DNA of 20,000 nucleotides from the IMG/VR virus record IMGVR_UViG_3300044911_002384; one strand, 5' to 3'. This stretch comes from an uncultured virus (IMG/VR IMGVR_UViG_3300044911_002384). Taxonomy: Duplodnaviria; Heunggongvirae; Uroviricota; Caudoviricetes. This document shows positions 1 through 14,178 of this stretch, in pieces; position 1 is the stretch's first letter, and each line of letters begins with the position of its first letter. The position numbers and the translations under genes are program-made. The notes under the pieces were generated by a model. It was not told the DNA's origin. It saw only the letters and a program-made list of their open reading frames with translations, and ran no database searches.

Positions 1-1041
<1,041 letters not shown>

Positions 1042-1629: not shown

Positions 1630-1648
1630 AAAATCTTTCTAAAATTAT

Positions 1649-1677
1649 ATTATACAAAAAAAATTAAATTAAAACAA
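1649..1677 (-). promoter_or_regulatory. Sigma70-type promoter TTGTTT-N17-TATAAT
   Basis: Perfect -10 at 1649-1654 and partial -35 at 1672-1677, about 20 nt upstream of the exonuclease ATG. The AT-rich context lowers specificity. Confidence 0.5.
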
Positions 1678-1893
1678 CTTTTTTGGCAATTGTTCTTTTT
1701 TTAATTTGTTTAAGAAACGAGCTCGACCTGCTGCTTTTTTACGTTTACGAGCTGTTGTTGGTTTTTCATAAAATTCTTTTTTTTGTAGAGTCTTTAATGT
1801 ACCAGCTTCCTCTACTTTGTTTTTTAATTTGCGTAAAGCTCTGTTTACATCGTCTCCATCTCTTAGCACTACTGTAGTTCCTTTTCTAGGCAT
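1669..1893 (-). CDS. rpsU: Phage-encoded ribosomal protein bS21
   Basis: V.LRDGDDVNRALRKLKNKVEEAG.L..L.KKEFYEKPTTARKRKKAA...LPKKLF is the bS21 signature. Start placed at ATG 1893 (GAGG 6 nt upstream); ATG 1899 is the alternative. Confidence 0.95.
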   Translation of the reverse strand: MPRKGTTVVLRDGDDVNRALRKLKNKVEEAGTLKTLQKKEFYEKPTTARKRKKAAGRARFLNKLKKEQLPKKLF

Positions 1894-2287
1894 CCTCATC
1901 CTCGTCGTCTTTATCTAGAACTTCTAAAACCCAATCTAAATTATACATTCTATTTCTGCTTATTAAACTCCACGGTGTGATTTCATCTGTGGTATAATAG
2001 TAAGCATTAGATTGTGTTAGAATTAAGGAAACAAATAGTTTAGTAAGATCGTCACAATTATCAATGTCTACAACAATCCTATCGACACTTTGGCTCACTG
2101 ACAATAACCAGTTGATATCCGATTCAGCATCATCAAACACATATACATTTACATCTTCTCCAATCTTACTTAGAGTAGCTTGAAATTGCAGTTTGATTTT
2201 AGTAGACGGTTTGACTAATAAGAATGATAAGTTCGAATTGTACAGTCTGTCAGGAGGTGTAATTAAGTTAATATTTGTTCCACTCAT
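1886..2287 (-). CDS. Hypothetical protein (133 aa)
   Basis: Intact ORF in the gene-dense strand, overlapping the bS21 start. Acidic C-terminus; no recognised motif. Confidence 0.8.
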   Translation of the reverse strand: MSGTNINLITPPDRLYNSNLSFLLVKPSTKIKLQFQATLSKIGEDVNVYVFDDAESDINWLLSVSQSVDRIVVDIDNCDDLTKLFVSLILTQSNAYYYTTDEITPWSLISRNRMYNLDWVLEVLDKDDEDEDA

Positions 2288-2291
2288 ATAA

Positions 2292-3890
2292 CTACTTATT
2301 CTTTTTTTCCTGAATCTTTTGCCACAATGAATCAGGGCTTTGTTCTGAATTTTGCTTGTAATTTAGATCATTAGATTCTTCAGTTTCCGCATCAAAATGT
2401 GCTACAGTTTCCCAAGGTAGTTTATCTATAAGGCCTCGTTCGTATAAAGAACGCTGACGCTTCAACGTATCGTGCGGATTAGATGCCTTCCATGCTCTAC
2501 GAGCATCTGTATCTGCTTCCTCGTCTTCCTCGTCTATTACTCGTTGTGCCCATGTTTCTTCATTTTCTAGAACAGGAACACTGTTAATTAGATCCTGATC
2601 TAACTTGGCTTGTCCTTCTAATGGACGTACCATTGGAAACGGATATGGCTTTTCATATTCATTTAGATCTGCGATATCACTTGGCATTTCTGAATGCTCA
2701 TCAACAGAGTCTTTAATTTGTTTGATTTGTTCTTCTGTTAAAGGACCGTCGTCTGGTTCGTAGTTATATCCATCTTCTTTTGGAATCTCTGATATCAGAC
2801 GATTAGCTTCTTCGATGTCTGCTTGATCGTCTTCGATATCTTGCAATTTAGCAATTACTCTTAGACGTTTAAAAAATTGCTCTGTTTCAGGATCGATTGT
2901 GCCATACAATCCATCGACTACATCACACTCTTTATTAGGACAAAAAGGACCAATTCCTGGGGCATCCATAACTTCTGTCCTGCACTTAGGACAATGCGTT
3001 ATTACTTCTTGGGGATCTCCGGTAGCCACCACAGGATTGGTTCCACCACTATCTCCCACCACATGTACACTATTAAGTTCGGCATCAGTATTAGCATCTT
3101 GTTCCTCCTTGACTCGTCTGAAGTATTGAAAACTGTATTGACTAGACAATAATAGAACAACTGCTAACGGATCAAAAATAACAACAATCAAAATTATGAC
3201 CCAACGAACTGCACGTTCTAAAACATTTTGATCCGGATTATCGCCATACAGTAAAGCCGCAATGTATTTAATCGGCCCTACTTCAGCCTCTACCTTGCGT
3301 AACTCGCTAGCTATTGGTGCCCGTTCTTGATTAAGAGCAGCGATTGTTTTTTGAGAACGTGCAATATCTGATTGCAGAGCAGTGCGTTCTTTGGCTTGAT
3401 TGCGACGAATTTGTACAGCACGTTCAGCACCACGTTCTGTATCGCTACGACCTAACATTTGATCAACTTGTGCATCCATTTGAGTCAATGCTCGTCTAGC
3501 CGCATCAATATTGTCACGTTCTGTTTTAATTTTCTCGTCTATAAGAGCGACTTTAGCAGCAACATCACCGGTAGGTACGGCCTGATCTAAATGTGCTTTC
3601 GACAAATAACCAAAAATTCCCATCGATGTAATTAACATCAAAATGGATACTGCTATAAGCAGGTAAGTTTTAATTAGTCTAGGAGCAATAAACCAATTCT
3701 GTTTCAACCAAACAGTGGCAACTAATTTACTAACTTCTAATACTATTCCCATAATGGCAATAGGTACAGCCGCGGCGGCAAAAATACTTATTAGGCCTGC
3801 GACAGAATACCAAACAGCCACAGCAGAAATGGCAAGTCCGCTGAATAGAGCAAACCATGCAATACTTTTATCAGCAAATGTAATTTTCAT
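2292..3890 (-). CDS. Membrane protein with coiled coil, possible Zn ribbon and acidic tail
   Basis: About 3 N-terminal hydrophobic helices, a coiled coil (KIKTERDNIDAARRALTQMD...), a further TM (WVIILIVVIFDPLAVVLLL), CPKC...CPNKEC, and an acidic C-terminal half. ATG 3890 preferred to TTG 3896. Confidence 0.8.
   Translation of the reverse strand: MKITFADKSIAWFALFSGLAISAVAVWYSVAGLISIFAAAAVPIAIMGIVLEVSKLVATVWLKQNWFIAPRLIKTYLLIAVSILMLITSMGIFGYLSKAHLDQAVPTGDVAAKVALIDEKIKTERDNIDAARRALTQMDAQVDQMLGRSDTERGAERAVQIRRNQAKERTALQSDIARSQKTIAALNQERAPIASELRKVEAEVGPIKYIAALLYGDNPDQNVLERAVRWVIILIVVIFDPLAVVLLLSSQYSFQYFRRVKEEQDANTDAELNSVHVVGDSGGTNPVVATGDPQEVITHCPKCRTEVMDAPGIGPFCPNKECDVVDGLYGTIDPETEQFFKRLRVIAKLQDIEDDQADIEEANRLISEIPKEDGYNYEPDDGPLTEEQIKQIKDSVDEHSEMPSDIADLNEYEKPYPFPMVRPLEGQAKLDQDLINSVPVLENEETWAQRVIDEEDEEADTDARRAWKASNPHDTLKRQRSLYERGLIDKLPWETVAHFDAETEESNDLNYKQNSEQSPDSLWQKIQEKKNK
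2293..2300 (-). promoter_or_regulatory. Putative late promoter (AATAAGTA), 5 nt before ATG 2287
   Basis: Variant of the recurring motif; no SD before the ATG. Confidence 0.4.
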
Positions 3891-6708: not shown

Positions 6709-6737
6709 ATTATACTAGACTTTTTGGTTTTTGTCTA
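6709..6737 (-). promoter_or_regulatory. Sigma70-type promoter TAGACA-N17-TATAAT
   Basis: -35 at 6732-6737 (includes the upstream gene's TAG) and -10 at 6709-6714. Overlapped by inverted repeat ACTAGAC/GTCTAGT. Confidence 0.75.
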
Positions 6738-7061
6738 GTCTCTAATAAAATCACGACTGACTTTATATAGCAAACTTTCGTGATCGAGATTTTGAAATTC
6801 TTCACCCAATTCATACAAATCATCTGAATAGTCTGGTTGATCGAACCCTAAAATTTCAAACAATTCTCTTTTGGTAAGCTTTTCGCCTCTCATATAGTTG
6901 ACCCAAACTATAGTCATTGTGTAGCACATAAACAACTGTGCATCATTGACGATACCATGATATTCGCACCATGATTCGGTTTGTTTTAAATAGTAATCAA
7001 AATCTTCTAACCTGTGTCTAATTTGGAATAACCAATTTTTGGTATCTTCTCTAGACCACAT
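6735..7061 (-). CDS. Hypothetical protein
   Basis: Likely start MWSREDTK at ATG 7061, 1 nt after the iscA stop. The longer 7124 start overlaps iscA. Confidence 0.75.
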   Translation of the reverse strand: MWSREDTKNWLFQIRHRLEDFDYYLKQTESWCEYHGIVNDAQLFMCYTMTIVWVNYMRGEKLTKRELFEILGFDQPDYSDDLYELGEEFQNLDHESLLYKVSRDFIRD

Positions 7062-7062
7062 T

Positions 7063-7383
7063 TCAAACTCTAAAAGATTCACCGCAACCGCATCGATCCT
7101 TTTCTTTGTTATTGATAAAGTCAAATCCTTCGTTAAGACCTTGACGTCGCCAATCCATGGTCATACCATCGATATATGGTAAGTCTTTTGGATTTACAAA
7201 GATAGTAACACCGTTGCTTTCGTATGTAATTTGATCTGTGTGTGGCGTGTCTACATATTCTAATTTATAGGCAAGTCCTGAACATCCGGTAGTTCTTACT
7301 CCTACCATTATTCCAAGACCGTGCCCTCGATTAGATAACTGCTGCTGTACTTTCTTGGCTGCTATTTCTGTTAATTGAATCAT
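7063..7383 (-). CDS. iscA: Iron-sulfur cluster assembly A-type carrier IscA
   Basis: I.LTE.AA, GVRTTGCSGLAY, GLNEGFDF.N, CGCGESF motifs. Confidence 0.96.
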   Translation of the reverse strand: MIQLTEIAAKKVQQQLSNRGHGLGIMVGVRTTGCSGLAYKLEYVDTPHTDQITYESNGVTIFVNPKDLPYIDGMTMDWRRQGLNEGFDFINNKEKDRCGCGESFRV

Positions 7384-7753
7384 GTTTTGATTTATAATCC
7401 GATAAAGCTGCTTTTATTGCATCTTCTGCAAGAATCGAACAGTGTATTTTGACAGGTGGTAATGCGAGCTCTTCGGCAATTTCCGAATTCTTGATGGCAT
7501 TCGCTTCATCAAGACTTTTACCTTTGAGCCATGTAGTAACAAGCGACGAACTTGCAATCGCTGAGCCGCAGCCATACGTCTTGAATTTGGCATCAGTGAT
7601 GATATTATCTTCTACTTTAATTTGTAATTGCAGAACATCTCCGCAAGCCGGTGCTCCTACTAATCCTGTTCCTACAGTAGGGTCGTTCTTATCAAGTTTG
7701 CCGACATTACGAGGATTCTCATAATGATCTATAACTTGATCAGAATATGACAT
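7331..7753 (-). CDS. iscU: Fe-S cluster scaffold IscU
   Basis: YSDQVIDHYENPRNVG, GAPACGDV, FKTYGCGSAIASSS, LPPVKIHCSILAEDAI motifs. Confidence 0.97.
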   Translation of the reverse strand: MSYSDQVIDHYENPRNVGKLDKNDPTVGTGLVGAPACGDVLQLQIKVEDNIITDAKFKTYGCGSAIASSSLVTTWLKGKSLDEANAIKNSEIAEELALPPVKIHCSILAEDAIKAALSDYKSKHDSINRNSSQESTAAVI

Positions 7754-7815
7754 TAGCGTTTTCTCCTACTTGCTGCCTTAGTTTTTGCTGCTCTTTTGCG
7801 TAGTTGCTTTCCCAT
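7753..7815 (-). CDS. Tiny basic peptide, 20 aa: MGKQLRKRAAKTKAASRRKR
   Basis: TAAGGAG SD 5 nt before the ATG. The stop overlaps the iscU start (TAATG). Fills the intergenic gap exactly. Below the ORF-track length cutoff. Confidence 0.7.
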   Translation of the reverse strand: MGKQLRKRAAKTKAASRRKR

Positions 7816-7824
7816 GACTTCTCC

Positions 7825-7896
7825 TTAGATTTTTCCTCTACGGCGTAGCACTCTACGTACCGCAGCTTTAGTTTTTGTCTTTGCTCTGTAACCCAT
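7825..7896 (-). CDS. Tiny basic peptide, 23 aa: MGYRAKTKTKAAVRRVLRRRGKI
   Basis: AGAGGA SD upstream. Its stop TAA is part of the next gene's SD. Shares KTKAA with the neighbouring peptide. Confidence 0.7.
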   Translation of the reverse strand: MGYRAKTKTKAAVRRVLRRRGKI

Positions 7897-7913
7897 AATT
7901 TTTCCTCTTTAAA

Positions 7914-8108
7914 TTATTTAGTTTTGGACTCTTTACGTTCGTTCTTAACTGCGGTAACATCATTTCTTGCTTCTTTACAGAATTTAGTCAATTCTTGAAG
8001 TCCTTTACGCACACGGGTTCCAGCACTGCCTACGCCCTTGTCGTAGAATTTTTCAAAATCACTTTCCATCGATTCTACTAATTTTACTAATTCTTGATAC
8101 TTACTCAT
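7914..8108 (-). CDS. Histone H1-like (Hc1 family) small protein
   Basis: DFEKFYDKG..SAGTRVRKGLQEL...CKE.R..V matches the short bacterial 'histone H1/Hc1' N-terminal domain; AAGGAG SD. Confidence 0.75.
   Translation of the reverse strand: MSKYQELVKLVESMESDFEKFYDKGVGSAGTRVRKGLQELTKFCKEARNDVTAVKNERKESKTK
7915..7922 (-). promoter_or_regulatory. Putative late promoter (ACTAAATA)
   Basis: Variant of the recurring motif at the end of the Hc1-like gene, 18 nt before ATG 7896. Confidence 0.45.
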
Positions 8109-8697
8109 AATCTTCTCCTTGTGTAATTATGTTATAAATTTGTTTCCAATTTTTGACTACAGGGTATGGACATTCGTGTTTCATATTGTGTCCATGTTCT
8201 ACTAAAATACTTTTAAGTCCTAGTGCATGTCCAAGATCAGCATTGATAGGTTTATCTTCAATCCAATACAATCCACTGTTCTTGTATTCAGACAGTGCAT
8301 CATCTTTATCTGCACCAGTATCTAAAAAAACGAATTTTTCAAATGCTGTGGAACCAAATATTTTTTTAATATTCATTTCTCTAAGCTTTTGAGCATTTGT
8401 ATCATTACTTAGACTAGTTATACAATGAAACTTAAATCCGTGTTCTTCATGTAAACGTTTTACATAATATGTAGCATCTCTTAGACTAGGAAGAAAGCCA
8501 ATTGCTGCACTTTCATTGAATATTCTAATCAATTTTTTAGCTTCGTATTGATCCAAATCTTCGTACTGGTCGTGTAAGTAATAACTGTGTTTTCCATTTG
8601 GTTTGCTAACGTAACCACGTTCGGACATCCAGACATGAAATGCCCATTCCCAATCGAGGATAACTCCATCTGCGTCTGTAAGTATGATTTTTTCCAT
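8101..8697 (-). CDS. HAD-superfamily phosphatase, 5'(3')-nucleotidase-like
   Basis: ILTDADGVILDW (motif I), ITS (II), K (III), WIED (IV). True start is ATG 8697 (MEKIILTD); the 8790 start overlaps the PAAR gene. Confidence 0.8.
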   Translation of the reverse strand: MEKIILTDADGVILDWEWAFHVWMSERGYVSKPNGKHSYYLHDQYEDLDQYEAKKLIRIFNESAAIGFLPSLRDATYYVKRLHEEHGFKFHCITSLSNDTNAQKLREMNIKKIFGSTAFEKFVFLDTGADKDDALSEYKNSGLYWIEDKPINADLGHALGLKSILVEHGHNMKHECPYPVVKNWKQIYNIITQGEDYE

Positions 8698-8703
8698 ACT
8701 TAA

Positions 8704-8732
8704 AGTATATGTTAGATTTTTATTAATGTCAA
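8704..8732 (-). promoter_or_regulatory. Sigma70-type promoter TTGACA-N17-TATACT, leaderless transcript predicted
   Basis: -35 at 8727-8732 (contains the PAAR gene's TGA) and -10 at 8704-8709. The ATG follows 6 nt later with no SD. Confidence 0.75.
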
Positions 8733-9019
8733 CCACCTGCAAATACGTTTGGTGAACCTGCTGCCACTGCGGTGCAACCAGAAAGACCATCCCCTATTCT
8801 TCCACATCCTTTATTGTTCACTTTGACTGTACTGCTACCTGCGGCGATTGGAGCAGAGTGTGCTGGGCAAGGACTACCTGGTAATAAATGAACTGTATTC
8901 ACATCCCCTTGTCTACTTACAGGTTTGTTGTTAACAAAAACGTTACCGGATCCTACTGCCCTGACCATACCAGAGCAGTGCGCAACATCTGCATCACCAA
9001 TTCTTGTAACTGCTGGCAT
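8729..9019 (-). CDS. PAAR-domain spike tip protein (T4 gp5.4-like)
   Basis: MPAVTRIGD..HC, GSGNVFVNNKPVSRQGD...H, GSSTVKVN.KG.GRIGD...C...A.GSPNVFAG repeats. Confidence 0.92.
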   Translation of the reverse strand: MPAVTRIGDADVAHCSGMVRAVGSGNVFVNNKPVSRQGDVNTVHLLPGSPCPAHSAPIAAGSSTVKVNNKGCGRIGDGLSGCTAVAAGSPNVFAGG

Positions 9020-9985: not shown

Positions 9986-10210
9986 TTAGCCTTTTAAATA
10001 TTGTTTAAGTTCTGTAAATCCACCAATTAGTTTATTATCTAAAAAAATCTGTGGAACTGTACGTGCTGTTGGTACTGCTTCTAATAAATCTTCTTTGCTA
10101 TAGCCATCTCCGATTTTGCGTTCTTCAAACTCAATTCCTTTGTGTGTTAGTAAGGCTTTAGCTTGATCACAAAATGGACAATGATACTTACTCCATACTA
10201 CTGCTTTCAT
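9986..10210 (-). CDS. grx: Glutaredoxin
   Basis: CPFC active site, RTVPQIF, IGGF; ATGA overlap with the nrdB stop. Confidence 0.95.
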   Translation of the reverse strand: MKAVVWSKYHCPFCDQAKALLTHKGIEFEERKIGDGYSKEDLLEAVPTARTVPQIFLDNKLIGGFTELKQYLKG

Positions 10211-11310
10211 AATGTTGGCAACTCCTCATAATCAATAGCGTCACTCATTACGCCTATAACATAATTAGTCGACTCATTCTCTTGTAAGGCAGTTTGTTTC
10301 TTACTAGTATCGCTGTGTTTGTTAAACCAAGGAATTGGTGTAGTCTTTGGAGCAGCGTGTTGATATTTGATTCCGATTTCCTTCAATGCGCCTACTGCTG
10401 TGTAGTCTACAAAATCTTTTAAGATATTAGCATTCAAACCAATAACAGGACCTTTCTTAAAAAGATAGTCGGCCCATGCTTTTTCTTCACGAATAACATC
10501 TTCATACATAGTGTATACTTCGATTTCACATTCGATTTTAGCACGAGCGAATCTTTCATCTTCTTTGACCACGTTGTTAATTAGCATGGCTGTCCATTCT
10601 TTATGGAGCAATTCATCTTGTAGAATCAAACTGATAATGTTGCCATTACCAATAAAGATTTTATTCTCTACCATGGCTAAACTTGTAGCAAAACTAACCA
10701 TAAAGCGGAATGCCTCTAAAGCATAACTGGCATTGAGTGCTAACCAGATTGCTTTGACATGTTCGATGTCAGTTACATTAGCTTCGTTTAATTCTTTACG
10801 ACAGTTTAGTCTATGTAATAAATCATAATACTTGCCTACACTACTGGCCATGTCAATAATTTCTTGTGTGTCATGAATAGTGTTAAACACTTCCTTAGGC
10901 ACATTATAGATGTTGCGGATAATGTGACTGTAACTACGACTGTGAATATTAGTTTCAAAGAAACTCCAGTTGTACATAAGTGCTTCTAGTTCAGGCAAAC
11001 TTACACAAGGAGTAAACACTTGTGCCGGGCCACGGCCTTGTAAACTGTCTAAGGCAGTTTGACGTAATAAATTACTAGTAAAGATATGTTTAACCGCATC
11101 GCTGGCTTCTTTAAAATCTCCGGCATCTTTAGTTAGACTAATTTCTTCTGGCACCCAAAAGAAACCACGTGCTGTTTGTTCTATTTTTTGTATCTTAGGA
11201 TACTTGACTTCTTCAAATCTCTGAATAGTAACTGGACCTTCTGGATCCAAGAACATTTTACGACTTAAATAGTCTGTTTTTGTTTGTAAGTTATATTGTT
11301 GTTTGCTCAT
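10207..11310 (-). CDS. nrdB: Ribonucleotide reductase class Ia beta subunit
   Basis: FFWVPEEISL, RQTALDSLQGR, ETNIHSRSY (His ligand and radical Tyr), LEAFRFMVSF, DELLH, ALQENESTNY. Confidence 0.97.
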   Translation of the reverse strand: MSKQQYNLQTKTDYLSRKMFLDPEGPVTIQRFEEVKYPKIQKIEQTARGFFWVPEEISLTKDAGDFKEASDAVKHIFTSNLLRQTALDSLQGRGPAQVFTPCVSLPELEALMYNWSFFETNIHSRSYSHIIRNIYNVPKEVFNTIHDTQEIIDMASSVGKYYDLLHRLNCRKELNEANVTDIEHVKAIWLALNASYALEAFRFMVSFATSLAMVENKIFIGNGNIISLILQDELLHKEWTAMLINNVVKEDERFARAKIECEIEVYTMYEDVIREEKAWADYLFKKGPVIGLNANILKDFVDYTAVGALKEIGIKYQHAAPKTTPIPWFNKHSDTSKKQTALQENESTNYVIGVMSDAIDYEELPTL

Positions 11311-11845
11311 TTATATGATTCCAATTAATTATTTTCCATTGGTTTTCTAAATACTTCTTTTTGTCAGCTTGGTAATCCAGAGCCCAAGAATGCTCCCACC
11401 AGTCTATCAATAGTACTATGTCTTTTTTTACTTCGTGATTTGTTATTGTTTTTATTTTACCACTTTTACTAAGATATACCCATCCGCTACCTTGTATACT
11501 CATTGCTGTTTTTTCAAACTCTTCTTTAAACTTATCAAAGGATTTATAGTGTTTGTTTATAAATTCTTCTATAGCACCTTCTGGTTTATTTTTGTTGTTC
11601 GGTGCTTGATATTGTTGAAAAAGAATGTTGTGTAAAAATACTCCTGCTTCATTGAACACAGGGTCACCTTCGCCTTTGTTATATCTTTCGGCATAGGTCT
11701 TAGCTAACTTTTCGTAATGATAGTTAATTGTATTTTCACTTATGCTAGGATTTAGTTCGTCCTTTTTATAAGGCAAAGGTTTAATACTTAATTTTTCATT
11801 ACGGCCTTCTGCAATAAATCCTTTTATAAATTCATAACTCATCAC
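11291..11845 (-). CDS. sod: Fe/Mn superoxide dismutase family protein (divergent)
   Basis: PLPY...L.P.ISENTINYHY, LHN, GSGWVYL, LLIDWWEHSW.LDY, INW. All four metal ligands (H, H, D, H) are present. Confidence 0.9.
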   Translation of the reverse strand: MMSYEFIKGFIAEGRNEKLSIKPLPYKKDELNPSISENTINYHYEKLAKTYAERYNKGEGDPVFNEAGVFLHNILFQQYQAPNNKNKPEGAIEEFINKHYKSFDKFKEEFEKTAMSIQGSGWVYLSKSGKIKTITNHEVKKDIVLLIDWWEHSWALDYQADKKKYLENQWKIINWNHINEQTTI

Positions 11846-14178
11846 AGCTTACAAGCCTCACAGTCTGCATCATCTAACAAGCTTAAATCCATTTCATGGA
11901 ACCCGTTCATCTTTGGTTCGCCTAGATCTTCTTGACTCTTAGATCCTGTTTTATTAATCAAGCTATAATAGAAGGTCTTAATCCCCCAATAATGCGCTTG
12001 CATTAAATTTTTTGCAATTAATGTTGTAGGCACTTTGCGATCCTGATAATGTGCAGGATTATAAAAAGTATTTGTACTAATACTTTGATCAACATAGGCG
12101 GCTAACACTGCGGCAGTTTTAATATATCCTGCACAATCTCTTTGATCCCACATTAATTGATATTTGTTTTTCAATCTGTGATACTCAGGAACCACTTGTG
12201 TAAACGAACCTGCTTTACTTTCCTTAACACTGATTAAGCTCATGGGCATCTCAATACCGTTCGTGCTGTTTATAACAACACTGCTACTTTCAACCGGAGC
12301 AATGGCCATTAGTGTAGCATTACGAACACCATGCTGTTTCATTTCAGCACGTAGAGGTTCCCAATCAAGTTCAGGAGCAAAGTTAGTTAATTCGTTTACA
12401 CCTTCTGCTCGTAGTTCCCAAGGAAAAATACCTTGTCCATATCTAGTCTTATCGCTGTCTTTACACTTGCCTCTTTCTTTGGCTAGTTCTACTGTAGCTT
12501 CAGTTAGGTAGTAAGCTTGATGCTCGATCCAGGTTTTAACCTCTCCCAATGCATCGGTTTCTCCGTATTTAAGACCTCGTTTAGCATGCCAATAAGCAAG
12601 ATTAGTAACACCAATACCCAAAGGTTGAATTTCGTCATTGCTCAGTTTACTCTGAATTGATAAGAAATCTTGATAGTCCAGTATGTTACATAGACTACGT
12701 TGTAAGATGCGACAAGCACGTCGCATATCTTCCGGGTTACGAAAGGCACCCCAGTTGATTGAACCCAGGGTGCATAGGGCAATACGTCCTTCTTCGTCAT
12801 CTAATCTTTTAAATGCCTTAGTGGGCAACAATATTTCACAACATAGGTTACTTTGATATATCGTATGATACTCAGGATCAAATGGTCCTTGATTCATCAC
12901 ATTATCTATAAACACAAGATAGATACGACCCGTGTCTGTGCGTTCTTTTAAAATTCCAGATTTAAAAACTTCTTCTGCTGATATAACTTTCTTGCGCAGA
13001 CCAGATACTTTCTCGTACTTGATGTATAAATCTTCAAACCGTTTCGTGTTTGTGTAGAAAGCTTCATAAAGGTCTGGTACTTCGTTGGGATCAAAGAAAG
13101 TAATGGATTCTTTATTTTTAAATCTGCGCCAGAAGAAAGCAGACAATACCACTCCGTAGTCCATGTGTCTGACTCGGGTCTCGTCTGTGCCTTGATTATT
13201 CTTAAGCACGATAAGATCATCAAACTGATGATGCCAAATTGGATAAAAAACAGTAGCACTAGCATTACGTATTCCACCTTGACTGCAACTCCTTAAATCT
13301 GCGAACCATTTTTTTAAAAAAGGCAGCATGCCAGTGTGCATGATTTCGCCACCGCGAATCGGAGAGCCTAATGGACGTAGTCGACCAATTTCTAATCCAA
13401 TTCCTGCACGTTTACTAGCATACTTAGCCATCATTTCTCCAGAAGCGAAGATACTATCAAGGTCATCATCGCTGCGTATAAGGACGCAGCTACTAAATTG
13501 CTTGGTTGGTGTTCCCAGACCAGCAAGAACGGGAGTAGCGAGAGTAAAAAGACCGTCACTGGCCGCTGTATAATATTCTTTAATATATCGCATCCTTGCT
13601 TGATTCGGCTCTTCACGATGAAAGACCGTAGCTGCTGCGACCATGTATCGAACTTGGGGAGTTTCATATATTTCCTTTGTGCTGCGATTCTTAACTAGAT
13701 ACTTTTCGATTAGTTGCTCGATTGCAGCATAACTGTATTGCTCATCTTTTGAATGATCTATCATATCATTCATTTTGTTCCAATCTTCTTCTGTGTACCA
13801 ATTTAATAATTCTTGTGTGTAAAGACCTGTGGCCACATTCTTCTTTACGATTTCATATAGACGAGGAGGTTCATATCCTCCGTATACATCTTTACGTAAC
13901 ATACTTAATCTTTGTTTGCCTGCTACGTACTGATAATTAGTGTGTCCTAAATCTGGATTGCTTTCGATATCGATTAAGTCAACAATAGCCCTTAGTGTAA
14001 TTTCATCGATTTCTTTTGTAGTGATGCCATCATAGAAATGAGGCTGGCTTTTGATTTCAATCATACTTTGGCTAACATCTGCTATACCGCTACACACTTT
14101 AGCAATCTGTGTCTGCCATTTTTCGATTGTTAGTGCTTCTTTTTTTCCGTTTCTTTTTATTACTGTGATATTAGACAT
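11842..14178 (-). CDS. nrdA: Ribonucleotide reductase class Ia alpha subunit with ATP cone
   Basis: VIKRNG ATP cone, TPV, QFSSCVL, SQGGIR, QSNLCCEI, LCTL, APVESSS, KTFYY, C-terminal CEAC. No intein or intron apparent. Confidence 0.98.
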   Translation of the reverse strand: MSNITVIKRNGKKEALTIEKWQTQIAKVCSGIADVSQSMIEIKSQPHFYDGITTKEIDEITLRAIVDLIDIESNPDLGHTNYQYVAGKQRLSMLRKDVYGGYEPPRLYEIVKKNVATGLYTQELLNWYTEEDWNKMNDMIDHSKDEQYSYAAIEQLIEKYLVKNRSTKEIYETPQVRYMVAAATVFHREEPNQARMRYIKEYYTAASDGLFTLATPVLAGLGTPTKQFSSCVLIRSDDDLDSIFASGEMMAKYASKRAGIGLEIGRLRPLGSPIRGGEIMHTGMLPFLKKWFADLRSCSQGGIRNASATVFYPIWHHQFDDLIVLKNNQGTDETRVRHMDYGVVLSAFFWRRFKNKESITFFDPNEVPDLYEAFYTNTKRFEDLYIKYEKVSGLRKKVISAEEVFKSGILKERTDTGRIYLVFIDNVMNQGPFDPEYHTIYQSNLCCEILLPTKAFKRLDDEEGRIALCTLGSINWGAFRNPEDMRRACRILQRSLCNILDYQDFLSIQSKLSNDEIQPLGIGVTNLAYWHAKRGLKYGETDALGEVKTWIEHQAYYLTEATVELAKERGKCKDSDKTRYGQGIFPWELRAEGVNELTNFAPELDWEPLRAEMKQHGVRNATLMAIAPVESSSVVINSTNGIEMPMSLISVKESKAGSFTQVVPEYHRLKNKYQLMWDQRDCAGYIKTAAVLAAYVDQSISTNTFYNPAHYQDRKVPTTLIAKNLMQAHYWGIKTFYYSLINKTGSKSQEDLGEPKMNGFHEMDLSLLDDADCEACKL

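Follow-up and report, generated by a model that had tools for sequence, protein, structure and literature searches.

Predicted polycationic micro-protein genes of freshwater T4-like phages lie after a tail-less Hc1 gene and before two-piece tmRNA genes

The window analysed here is a stretch of 20,000 nucleotides (nt) from an uncultured virus of the Caudoviricetes (IMG/VR record IMGVR_UViG_3300044911_002384). In an apparent gap on its minus strand, between a gene for an Hc1 histone-like domain and the iron-sulfur (Fe-S) assembly gene iscU, an earlier note had pointed to two very short open reading frames (ORFs), each led by a Shine-Dalgarno (SD) sequence. Both are present (Table 1), and we call them pepA and pepB; their products in the ORF list of the window are 23 and 20 amino acids (aa) long, MGYRAKTKTKAAVRRVLRRRGKI and MGKQLRKRAAKTKAASRRKR, respectively. 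What the earlier note observed is correct, and of wider reach than first apparent: pepA and pepB belong to a new, so far overlooked phage gene set. On sequence comparison, this is a phage-restricted set of at least five to six micro-protein families (A to F, of 20-40 aa each), phage-only as far as searched, with two recurrent neighbourhoods, one after Hc1 and the other before the gene for transfer-messenger RNA (tmRNA).

Two micro-protein genes under purifying selection

In the minus-strand reading, AGAGGA stands 6 nt upstream of the pepA ATG and AAGGAG 5 nt upstream of the pepB ATG. The two ORFs share a reading frame, separated by a TAA and 9 nt, and are out of frame with the Hc1 gene. The pepB stop codon overlaps the iscU start in a TAATG, the translational coupling that had been proposed, and the same overlap is kept in four relatives (L006, L007, L008 and L080). 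Lysine and arginine account for 10 of the 23 residues of pepA (43%) and 10 of the 20 residues of pepB (50%), aspartate and glutamate are absent, and the net charge is about +9.5 each, in agreement with the strongly basic, acid-free character first ascribed to the pair. Each peptide probably forms one short amphipathic helix. Family A, that of pepA, has the motif KTKAA[VA]RRVLR, and family B, that of pepB, has the invariant core RAAKTKAAS; the window copy of pepB is a short form, also found in L082, and most of its relatives are 26-28 aa long. Tandem duplication had been suggested for the pair, and paralogy is plausible from the shared KTKAA.RR; the duplication is not recent at the DNA level, however, and the families are distinct across many phages.

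We hold it nearly certain, from sequence comparison, that pepA and pepB are real coding genes under selection. Between the window and locus L008, pepA shows 19 nucleotide differences, of which 13 are synonymous and the other six produce three conservative replacements; synonymous differences (pS 0.76) far exceed nonsynonymous ones (pN 0.12), with a binomial P of 8e-5. For pepB, pS (0.27-0.86) exceeds pN (0.02-0.26) in 15/15 pairs, and between L006 and L007 eight of nine changes are synonymous (P 9e-5). Some phages use AGT and others TCN for the invariant serine of pepB, and switches between CGN and AGR codons for arginine likewise keep the residue. The ORFs are intact in every relative examined, and an SD-like tetramer, with the upstream strings read by eye, precedes both window ORFs and 16 of 21 relatives. 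The conservation that the earlier note had wished to see checked is therefore borne out, the peptides being conserved under an excess of synonymous change, and their copy number varies.

The two genes also stand out within their genome. The region is held identically by a viral record of 364,554 bp (G004), rated complete and not a concatemer by CheckV, with 36% G+C. This record contains 2161 ATG-initiated ORFs of 15-45 aa, of which five have at least 40% lysine plus arginine and at most one acidic residue; among these five, only pepA and pepB have an SD and lie outside ORFs of at least 90 aa. A search of positions 7000-8800 of the window against Rfam returned no family at E <=1, and the predicted RNA fold of 7740-7925 (minus strand) was no better than that of shuffled sequences (z -0.81), so that no structured RNA is indicated there.

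Micro-protein families and shuffled arrays

To place the peptides among related phages we took the Hc1 protein as a query, which gave 43 viral loci; the DNA following the Hc1 stop codon could be read at 42 of them, and the remaining one, too short downstream, was dropped. In 16 of the 42 loci, which represent only five distinct DNA versions, Hc1 is directly followed by one or two basic micro-ORFs; the other 26 carry no such peptide. Searches with the peptides themselves, over viral contigs and over metagenomes (103 pattern matches in the latter, 8 confirmed), revealed a third family, C, with the patterns RKYPTPM and ERAAKRAT.

Between Hc1 and iscU the families are combined in several ways. The order A-B is found in the window, in the L008 type and in L083-85; C-B in L016 and L079; A-B-C in L081; and A-C-B in L086. 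Family B stands alone at this place in L006, L007, L015, L080 and L082, and no peptide is present there in L017-L021 and L028. Family B also occurs alone away from the Hc1-iscU interval, in L050 and L062. In L050, pepB directly follows a gene of the 198-aa type that precedes Hc1 in the window, and is itself followed by an unrelated 109-aa gene, a homologue of the window ORF 6735..7124; Hc1, iscU and iscA are absent from this pepB locus, and the whole 114-kb contig (rated 32% complete) has no PF07432 match. Further basic micro-ORFs are arranged in tandem elsewhere: three in L109, four in L123, and two after a CspA-like gene in L110. Each array gene has its own SD. We conclude that these are very probably multi-family arrays, shuffled in membership and order between closely related freshwater T4-like (Kyanoviridae-like) phages.

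The families share a common architecture, in which a short N-terminal part is followed by a C-terminal hydrophobic-[KR]-x-A-[AV]-[KR]-R-x-[LTV]-K-[KR]-[KR] (alignment A9). Between families, 22-53% of positions are identical across some 20 low-complexity residues, which is not enough to demonstrate homology; that families A, B, C, D, E and F descend from one ancestor is plausible. We note that in L062 a 36-aa ORF with a hydrophobic, membrane-helix-like core (139-249, plus strand) comes immediately ahead of pepB and the tmRNA gene, a further micro-ORF of this leader that resists annotation.

Junction with two-piece tmRNA genes

The second neighbourhood is marked by a close junction. In L062, L109, L110 and L123, 5-11 nt separate the end of the last peptide ORF from a following match to the permuted-tmRNA model RF04321 (77.6-146.6 bits; gathering score 47). 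The tmRNA genes following the arrays were called with ARAGORN and Rfam, and those of L062, L109 and L110 also score 118.8-132.3 bits against RF01850 (gathering score 84). As a separate matter, RF01850 is the betaproteobacterial model, and the fact that these three tmRNAs pass its gathering score may hint at a host group; the tmRNA of G004 was searched only with RF04321.

We also surveyed phage tmRNA loci without reference to the peptides. A 32-nt acceptor-arm pattern, taken from an alignment of six phage tmRNAs, was scanned over viral contigs and gave at least 120 matches, from which 80 loci were fetched, with 70 distinct upstream sequences. We counted ATG ORFs of 15-45 aa, with at least 35% lysine plus arginine and at most one acidic residue, on the tmRNA strand within 640 nt upstream. 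Such ORFs are present in 10 of the 70 loci, and in 7 of these 10 they end at the tmRNA 5' end; under the same rule, the opposite strand gave 0/70 and the 640 nt downstream gave 1/70. Two of the ten positive loci are contigs already known from the peptide searches. The family that abuts the tmRNA differs between phages (A, B, C, D, E and F types), which means that the junction was either preserved or formed anew as rearrangements took place.

Beside the L110 array we observed a 67-aa CspA-type cold-shock gene (1644-1847, plus strand), recognised by its sequence, which lies about 0.6 kb after Hc1 and directly before the array and tmRNA.

Promoters and expression

The arrays follow sequences resembling sigma-70-type promoters. 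A match lies directly before the array in L109 (12/12 consensus positions) and in L123 (10/12). In the window, the -10 element of the site listed in Table 1 ends 6 nt before the likely ATG (8697) of a gene for about 198 aa upstream of Hc1, so that an early mRNA starting from it would be almost leaderless; of the 14 loci examined, 7 have an exact TTGACA-16/17-TATA[AC]T in this position. The observation concerns window 8697-8790 (minus strand) together with the relatives L006, L007, L021, L079, L081 and L086. On the minus strand between 8204 and 7628, no promoter-like or terminator-like site was found that would separate Hc1, pepA, pepB and iscU. It is probable from this arrangement that the site starts a transcription unit holding Hc1, pepA, pepB, iscU and iscA. 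The peptide genes are probably early genes, as suggested by the promoter consensus and by analogy with T4-like phages, including a related marine methylophage (a T4-like myophage) whose tmRNA lies just behind an early promoter in the part of PMC9004378 that treats this gene.

Short contigs from RNA libraries, in four runs from three studies, are identical or near-identical to parts of iscA, iscU, pepB, pepA and the end of Hc1. One of 152 nt matches window 7776-7927 without a difference and runs from the Hc1 end across pepA into the start of pepB, which we take as a weak hint of RNA. This material consists of assembled contigs at small shares (0.07-0.19), which cannot show transcription, strand or ends, and in which uncovered parts are uninformative.

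The tail-less Hc1 neighbour

The gene upstream of pepA is a genuine member of its family, scoring 73.6 bits against the PF07432 cut-off of 23.5 and matching profile positions 1-56 of 57. Its 64-aa ORF stops 8 residues past the domain and is for this reason tail-less, as had been noted earlier; it lacks the Lys/Ala-rich C-terminal tail that a full-length chlamydial-type Hc1 carries on the same polypeptide. This form is the norm. All 42 phage relatives read to the stop codon are 54-64 aa long (42/42), and in a database survey of proteins of 35-112 aa, 258 of 260 candidates were related at E <=1e-3, the best 120 being 51-95 aa long and nearly all of these 62-67 aa.

The earlier note had considered a split histone or protamine-like system, in which the peptides would supply the missing tail. 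We found no support for a split Hc1, because tail-less Hc1 is usual, pepB is found without Hc1 (L050 and L062) and the pepB profile matched only pepB; the 26 peptide-free Hc1 loci point the same way. Searched against 1.84 billion representative proteins, that profile returned a single entry, pepB itself called from a spurious upstream GTG, and no Hc1 tails, a result to be read with the little reach of a 26-position low-complexity profile. A detached tail would be expected to show similarity to Hc1 tails and to co-occur with Hc1 throughout, and the peptides do neither.

PF07432 genes have been noted in large aquatic phages, where DNA compaction was suggested for them in the passages of PMC12619734 that concern these genes. 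The Hc1 of the present group was previously annotated as "histone H1" in the cultured Synechococcus phage S-SRM01 (L246, NC_070963.1). Downstream of the Hc1 homologue this phage has a 59-aa gene, an abiF RNA motif and four transfer RNA (tRNA) genes, and no basic peptides. The abiF motif (49.3 bits; gathering score 37), with the tRNA genes after it, lies in a stretch of the record without annotation (region 2435-3138).

Searches for known relatives

Outside phages, the peptides have no recognised relatives among the collections searched. In prokaryotes, with one genome for each of 185,579 species, a pattern search combined with tblastn gave 47 pattern matches for pepB and 10 for pepA, none of which was confirmed. 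A tblastn search of GenBank phages with pepA, pepB and a family D member gave no match, a weak negative since the low-complexity filter was on. In sequence searches of the PDB, pepA met only histone H4 at E 8.6, which we take as chance. A profile of the whole superfamily met only de novo designed helical repeat proteins, and we rejected these as spurious because their scores were summed over repeats. In the ESM Atlas, a 37-aa call of pepB scored 0.82 at best and a 35-aa member of family E 0.84 at best, within the range of shuffled sequences. A full-text literature search, which did not include supplements, found no description of such peptide genes.

Possible functions

A charge of +9 to +11 on 20-40 residues leads us to expect that the peptides bind polyanions, whether RNA or DNA, and on grounds of composition it is likely that they are trans-acting nucleic-acid binders. 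The gene neighbourhood makes the RNA of the translation apparatus, rather than DNA, our tentative first choice as their main target. The peptides would be made early, as free molecules, and would serve in trans as polycations that bind RNA of the translation apparatus, with ribosomal RNA, the mRNA channel or tmRNA as candidate targets. They would do so beside the phage's own tmRNA, bS21 and tRNAs in the take-over of host translation, with their arrays located between Hc1 and iscU or serving as a two-piece tmRNA's translated leader. We rank translation RNA first because of the recurrent 5-11-nt tmRNA junction in several permutations, the CspA neighbour, the investment of the phage in translation (the window's phage carries bS21, a two-piece tmRNA and 28 tRNAs) and, as far as is known, the ribosomal nature of the natural bacterial peptides of such size and charge.

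The small ribosomal proteins bTHX, bS22, bL34, bL36, bL37 and eL41 resemble the peptides in size (20-45 aa), in their extreme lysine and arginine content, in the lack of acidic residues and in a probable single helix. The peptide genes moreover share their genome with bS21, tmRNA and tRNAs and are joined to the tmRNA gene in related phages. They differ from core ribosomal proteins in that copy number and order vary between close relatives, and from the small ones in lacking any ribosomal family, ribosomal PDB chain or bacterial or archaeal homologue in the searches reported here. The ribosome-binding alternative raised in the earlier note has no sequence support in Pfam, NCBIfam or the PDB but gains circumstantial support from the tmRNA juxtaposition. 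A bolder version of it, to which we give only a minor chance, holds that these are a quickly shuffling stock of polycationic "micro ribosomal proteins" of 20-40 aa, encoded next to Hc1 or in the translated leader of the tmRNA precursor, which would insert early into host ribosomes or into the empty mRNA channel and reprogram translation and rescue together with phage tmRNA and bS21.

The basic C-terminal tails of SmpB, ArfA and ArfB probe the empty mRNA channel. Like the peptides, they are short segments rich in lysine and arginine, helical when bound, and the peptide genes of related phages are physically linked to a tmRNA gene; the window's phage carries a tmRNA, and no SmpB (PF01668) was found in the 364-kb G004 record. 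The peptides share no sequence similarity with these proteins and have no globular body for a tRNA-like domain, so that this is an analogy only. T4 MotB and PhiKZ014, in the parts of a review that cover them (PMC11323111), are likewise made early by their phages and bind DNA or ribosomes of the host, as is predicted for the peptides; both are much larger folded proteins.

Several points weigh against an action on the translation apparatus. The adjacency to Hc1 in 16 of 42 loci (five distinct DNA versions), together with a lysine, alanine and threonine composition like that of H1 tails, fits DNA binding equally well. In the tmRNA survey, 60 of 70 loci have no such ORF. The tmRNA gene of G004 itself (locus L125; 264534-264973, minus strand; RF04321, 103.1 bits) lies about 16 kb downstream of the peptides, beyond the low end of the window, and is preceded by a 50-aa Cys-rich ORF. 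Synteny inherited with one plastic region, or the use of a handy strong promoter, could account for the tmRNA link; a shared plastic region is possible because Hc1 sits 1 kb upstream of tmRNA in L110 and a tRNA cluster follows Hc1 in S-SRM01. The promoters are consensus matches only, and the RNA-library contigs are thin (depth 2-5), with DNA carry-over possible. Six peptides of families A, B and C had no match in Pfam, NCBIfam or PHROGs at E <=10. Among solved structures, pepB and the family A profile met nothing in the PDB, and across four PDB sequence searches there was no similarity to a ribosomal protein, SmpB, ArfA, a histone tail or another solved chain.

Binding to DNA or the nucleoid, together with Hc1, ranks close behind translation RNA as a reading, and we regard it as possible but rather doubtful. 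The peptides would then be DNA-directed polycations like free histone-H1 tails or protamines, acting with the tail-less Hc1 in early compaction or silencing of the host nucleoid or in the organisation of phage DNA. They lie directly downstream of Hc1 in the 16 loci already described and in 8/8 metagenome loci found with pepB, and are probably co-transcribed with it, the RNA-library contig that bridges the Hc1 end and pepA being in keeping with this. In composition and charge they resemble the tail of chlamydial Hc1 (HctA), eukaryotic H1 tails, protamines and adenovirus mu; their lysine, arginine, alanine, threonine and serine without acidic residues call to mind Lys/Ala-rich H1-type tails. Chlamydial Hc1, however, reportedly binds RNA as well, which we count against a DNA-directed role. 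Unlike Hc1 and H1 tails, the peptides are free-standing and are found without Hc1: besides pepB in L050 and L062, the arrays of L109 and L123 have no Hc1 within 2 kb. Most Hc1 loci are peptide-free, the 16 positive ones reduce to five DNA versions, and the pepB profile met no tail-bearing protein. Viral protamine-like proteins are expressed late and in connection with packaging. The peptides match their polycationic, acid-free composition but stand behind sigma-70 (early)-type consensus sites, which would tend to argue against a virion-packaging role as a true protamine; the term "protamine-like" thus fits their composition only. The suggestion of DNA compaction for the PF07432 genes of large aquatic phages, as worded in PMC12619734, would favour the DNA-directed reading.

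A trans role aimed at neither ribosome nor nucleoid is improbable and purely conjectural: the peptides could neutralise a polyanionic host factor or defence signal, or bind host proteins, for example an RNase or a protease adaptor. The shuffling, the changes of copy number and the presence or absence between near-identical phages resemble accessory counter-defence loci, and the early expression context agrees with this. Composition alone, however, predicts general polyanion binding.

Slightly less probable still is that the ORFs act in cis as leaders, the translation of ORFs rich in lysine and arginine codons tuning iscU through coupling, or the transcription or processing of pre-tmRNA. The conserved TAATG coupling and the ORF ends shortly before tmRNA would suit such a role. 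So would the leaders of marine pelagiphage and methylophage tmRNAs as set out in the relevant passages of PMC9004378, which resemble the arrays in that an early promoter and a leader precede a permuted tmRNA in T4-like aquatic phages; in that account a glutamine riboswitch occupies the leader position, whereas here one to four translated micro-protein genes do so, with no riboswitch at Rfam thresholds. A purely cis-acting role is unlikely because selection acts on the residues: it is strong on the encoded amino acids, non-basic positions included, while lysine and arginine may interchange. Several different peptide genes stand in tandem, each with its own SD, and the same families precede unrelated genes (iscU, tmRNA and the 109-aa gene in L050). 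Nor do the ORFs resemble attenuator-type leader peptides, given residues under purifying selection, an unremarkable fold and no terminator-like site on the minus strand.

We consider it largely refuted, and very improbable, that pepA and pepB are what is left of a Lys/Ala-rich Hc1 tail after a frameshift and a stop had detached it, the pieces now decaying or re-initiated. Their common frame, short spacing, position directly after Hc1 and tail-like composition would invite this reading; no tailed Hc1 was found among the 42 phage relatives read to the stop codon, however, tail-less forms dominate the best 120 database relatives among proteins of 35-112 aa, and the ORFs have their own SDs, are under purifying selection, change order (A-B-C and A-C-B) and occur also away from Hc1. 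That they are chance ORFs in an A/G-rich intergenic spacer, or mark a non-coding RNA, as their very short length and a low-complexity composition that eases chance similarity might suggest, is already refuted as far as comparison can go by the synonymous excess, the intactness in relatives, the SDs and the uniqueness in 364 kb, to which the lack of an Rfam match and of a stable fold may be added.

Genomic context

By DNA and protein matches the window has its affinity with T4-like Kyanoviridae-type phages. All genes around pepA and pepB lie on the minus strand, with the order of transcription running from the PAAR gene through the gene for about 198 aa, Hc1, pepA, pepB and iscU to iscA (Table 1).

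Table 1. Features of the window around pepA and pepB
Feature	Position	Strand	Remarks
PAAR gene	8729..9019	-	First in transcription order
Sigma-70-type promoter-like site, TTGACA-17-TATACT	8704..8732	-	11/12 consensus match
Conserved gene upstream of Hc1, about 198 aa	8101..8697 (mechanical ORF up to 8790)	-	D-x-D-G motif N-terminal
Hc1-domain gene, 64 aa, with AAGGAG SD	7914..8108	-	PF07432, E 1.1e-20
SD of pepA, AGAGGA	7903..7908	-	GGAGG or AGGAG in this position in relatives
pepA, predicted 23-aa polycationic micro-protein gene, family A	7825..7896	-	SD-led ORF
SD of pepB, AAGGAG	7821..7826	-	Overlaps pepA stop codon
pepB, predicted 20-aa polycationic micro-protein gene, family B	7753..7815	-	SD-led ORF
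iscU (NifU_N)	7331..7753	-	PF01592, E 2e-51; coupled to pepB
iscA/HesB-type Fe-S assembly gene	7063..7383	-	PF01521, E 3.8e-17; last recognisable gene of the unit
bS21 gene	1669..1899	-	PF01165, E 3.7e-16; not adjacent to pepA/pepB

For the gene of about 198 aa we take 8697 as the likely true start, because its relatives begin at this MDK/MEK-IILTD position and because the extension to 8790 would cover the promoter-like site. It matched no Pfam family at E <=0.01, and from its D-x-D-G motif alone it looks like a HAD-type phosphatase.

The iscU ORF, which runs to 7331, shares 53 nt with the iscA-type ORF, which starts from 7383, the two being read in different frames. The iscU of L081 is shorter, with 125 aa, and is separated from iscA by a 59-aa ORF; the 3' end of iscU is accordingly variable in this phage group. 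Beside the Fe-S assembly pair, the window holds a block of host-like genes (3-971, 1048-1629, 1669-1899 and 9986-14178, all on the minus strand) encoding DnaK (cut by the window end), an Rv2179c-like 3'-5' exoribonuclease, bS21, an Fe/Mn superoxide dismutase, a glutaredoxin and both subunits of ribonucleotide reductase. Elsewhere in G004, one of the 28 tRNAs (350196-350271, plus strand), called by ARAGORN with the anticodon CTA and listed as tRNA-Pyl, would be of the amber-suppressor type.

Significance

Genes of the pepA and pepB type fall below the length reported by common gene callers, yet they show clear purifying selection and turn up repeatedly, in many phage contigs, and a whole layer of phage micro-proteins is recoverable by comparison. 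They tie to two poorly understood features of phages, the tail-less Hc1 "histone" genes and the phage-encoded two-piece tmRNAs. Because the peptides can be made synthetically, they offer a concrete and cheap experimental handle. Should they act on DNA, a phage would have the function of histone tails or protamines in the form of free peptides. Should their target be ribosomes or tmRNA, no smaller virus-encoded components of the take-over of translation would be known, and if they were indeed "micro ribosomal proteins", they would constitute a class of ribosome modifiers new among viruses, which standard gene callers do not see.

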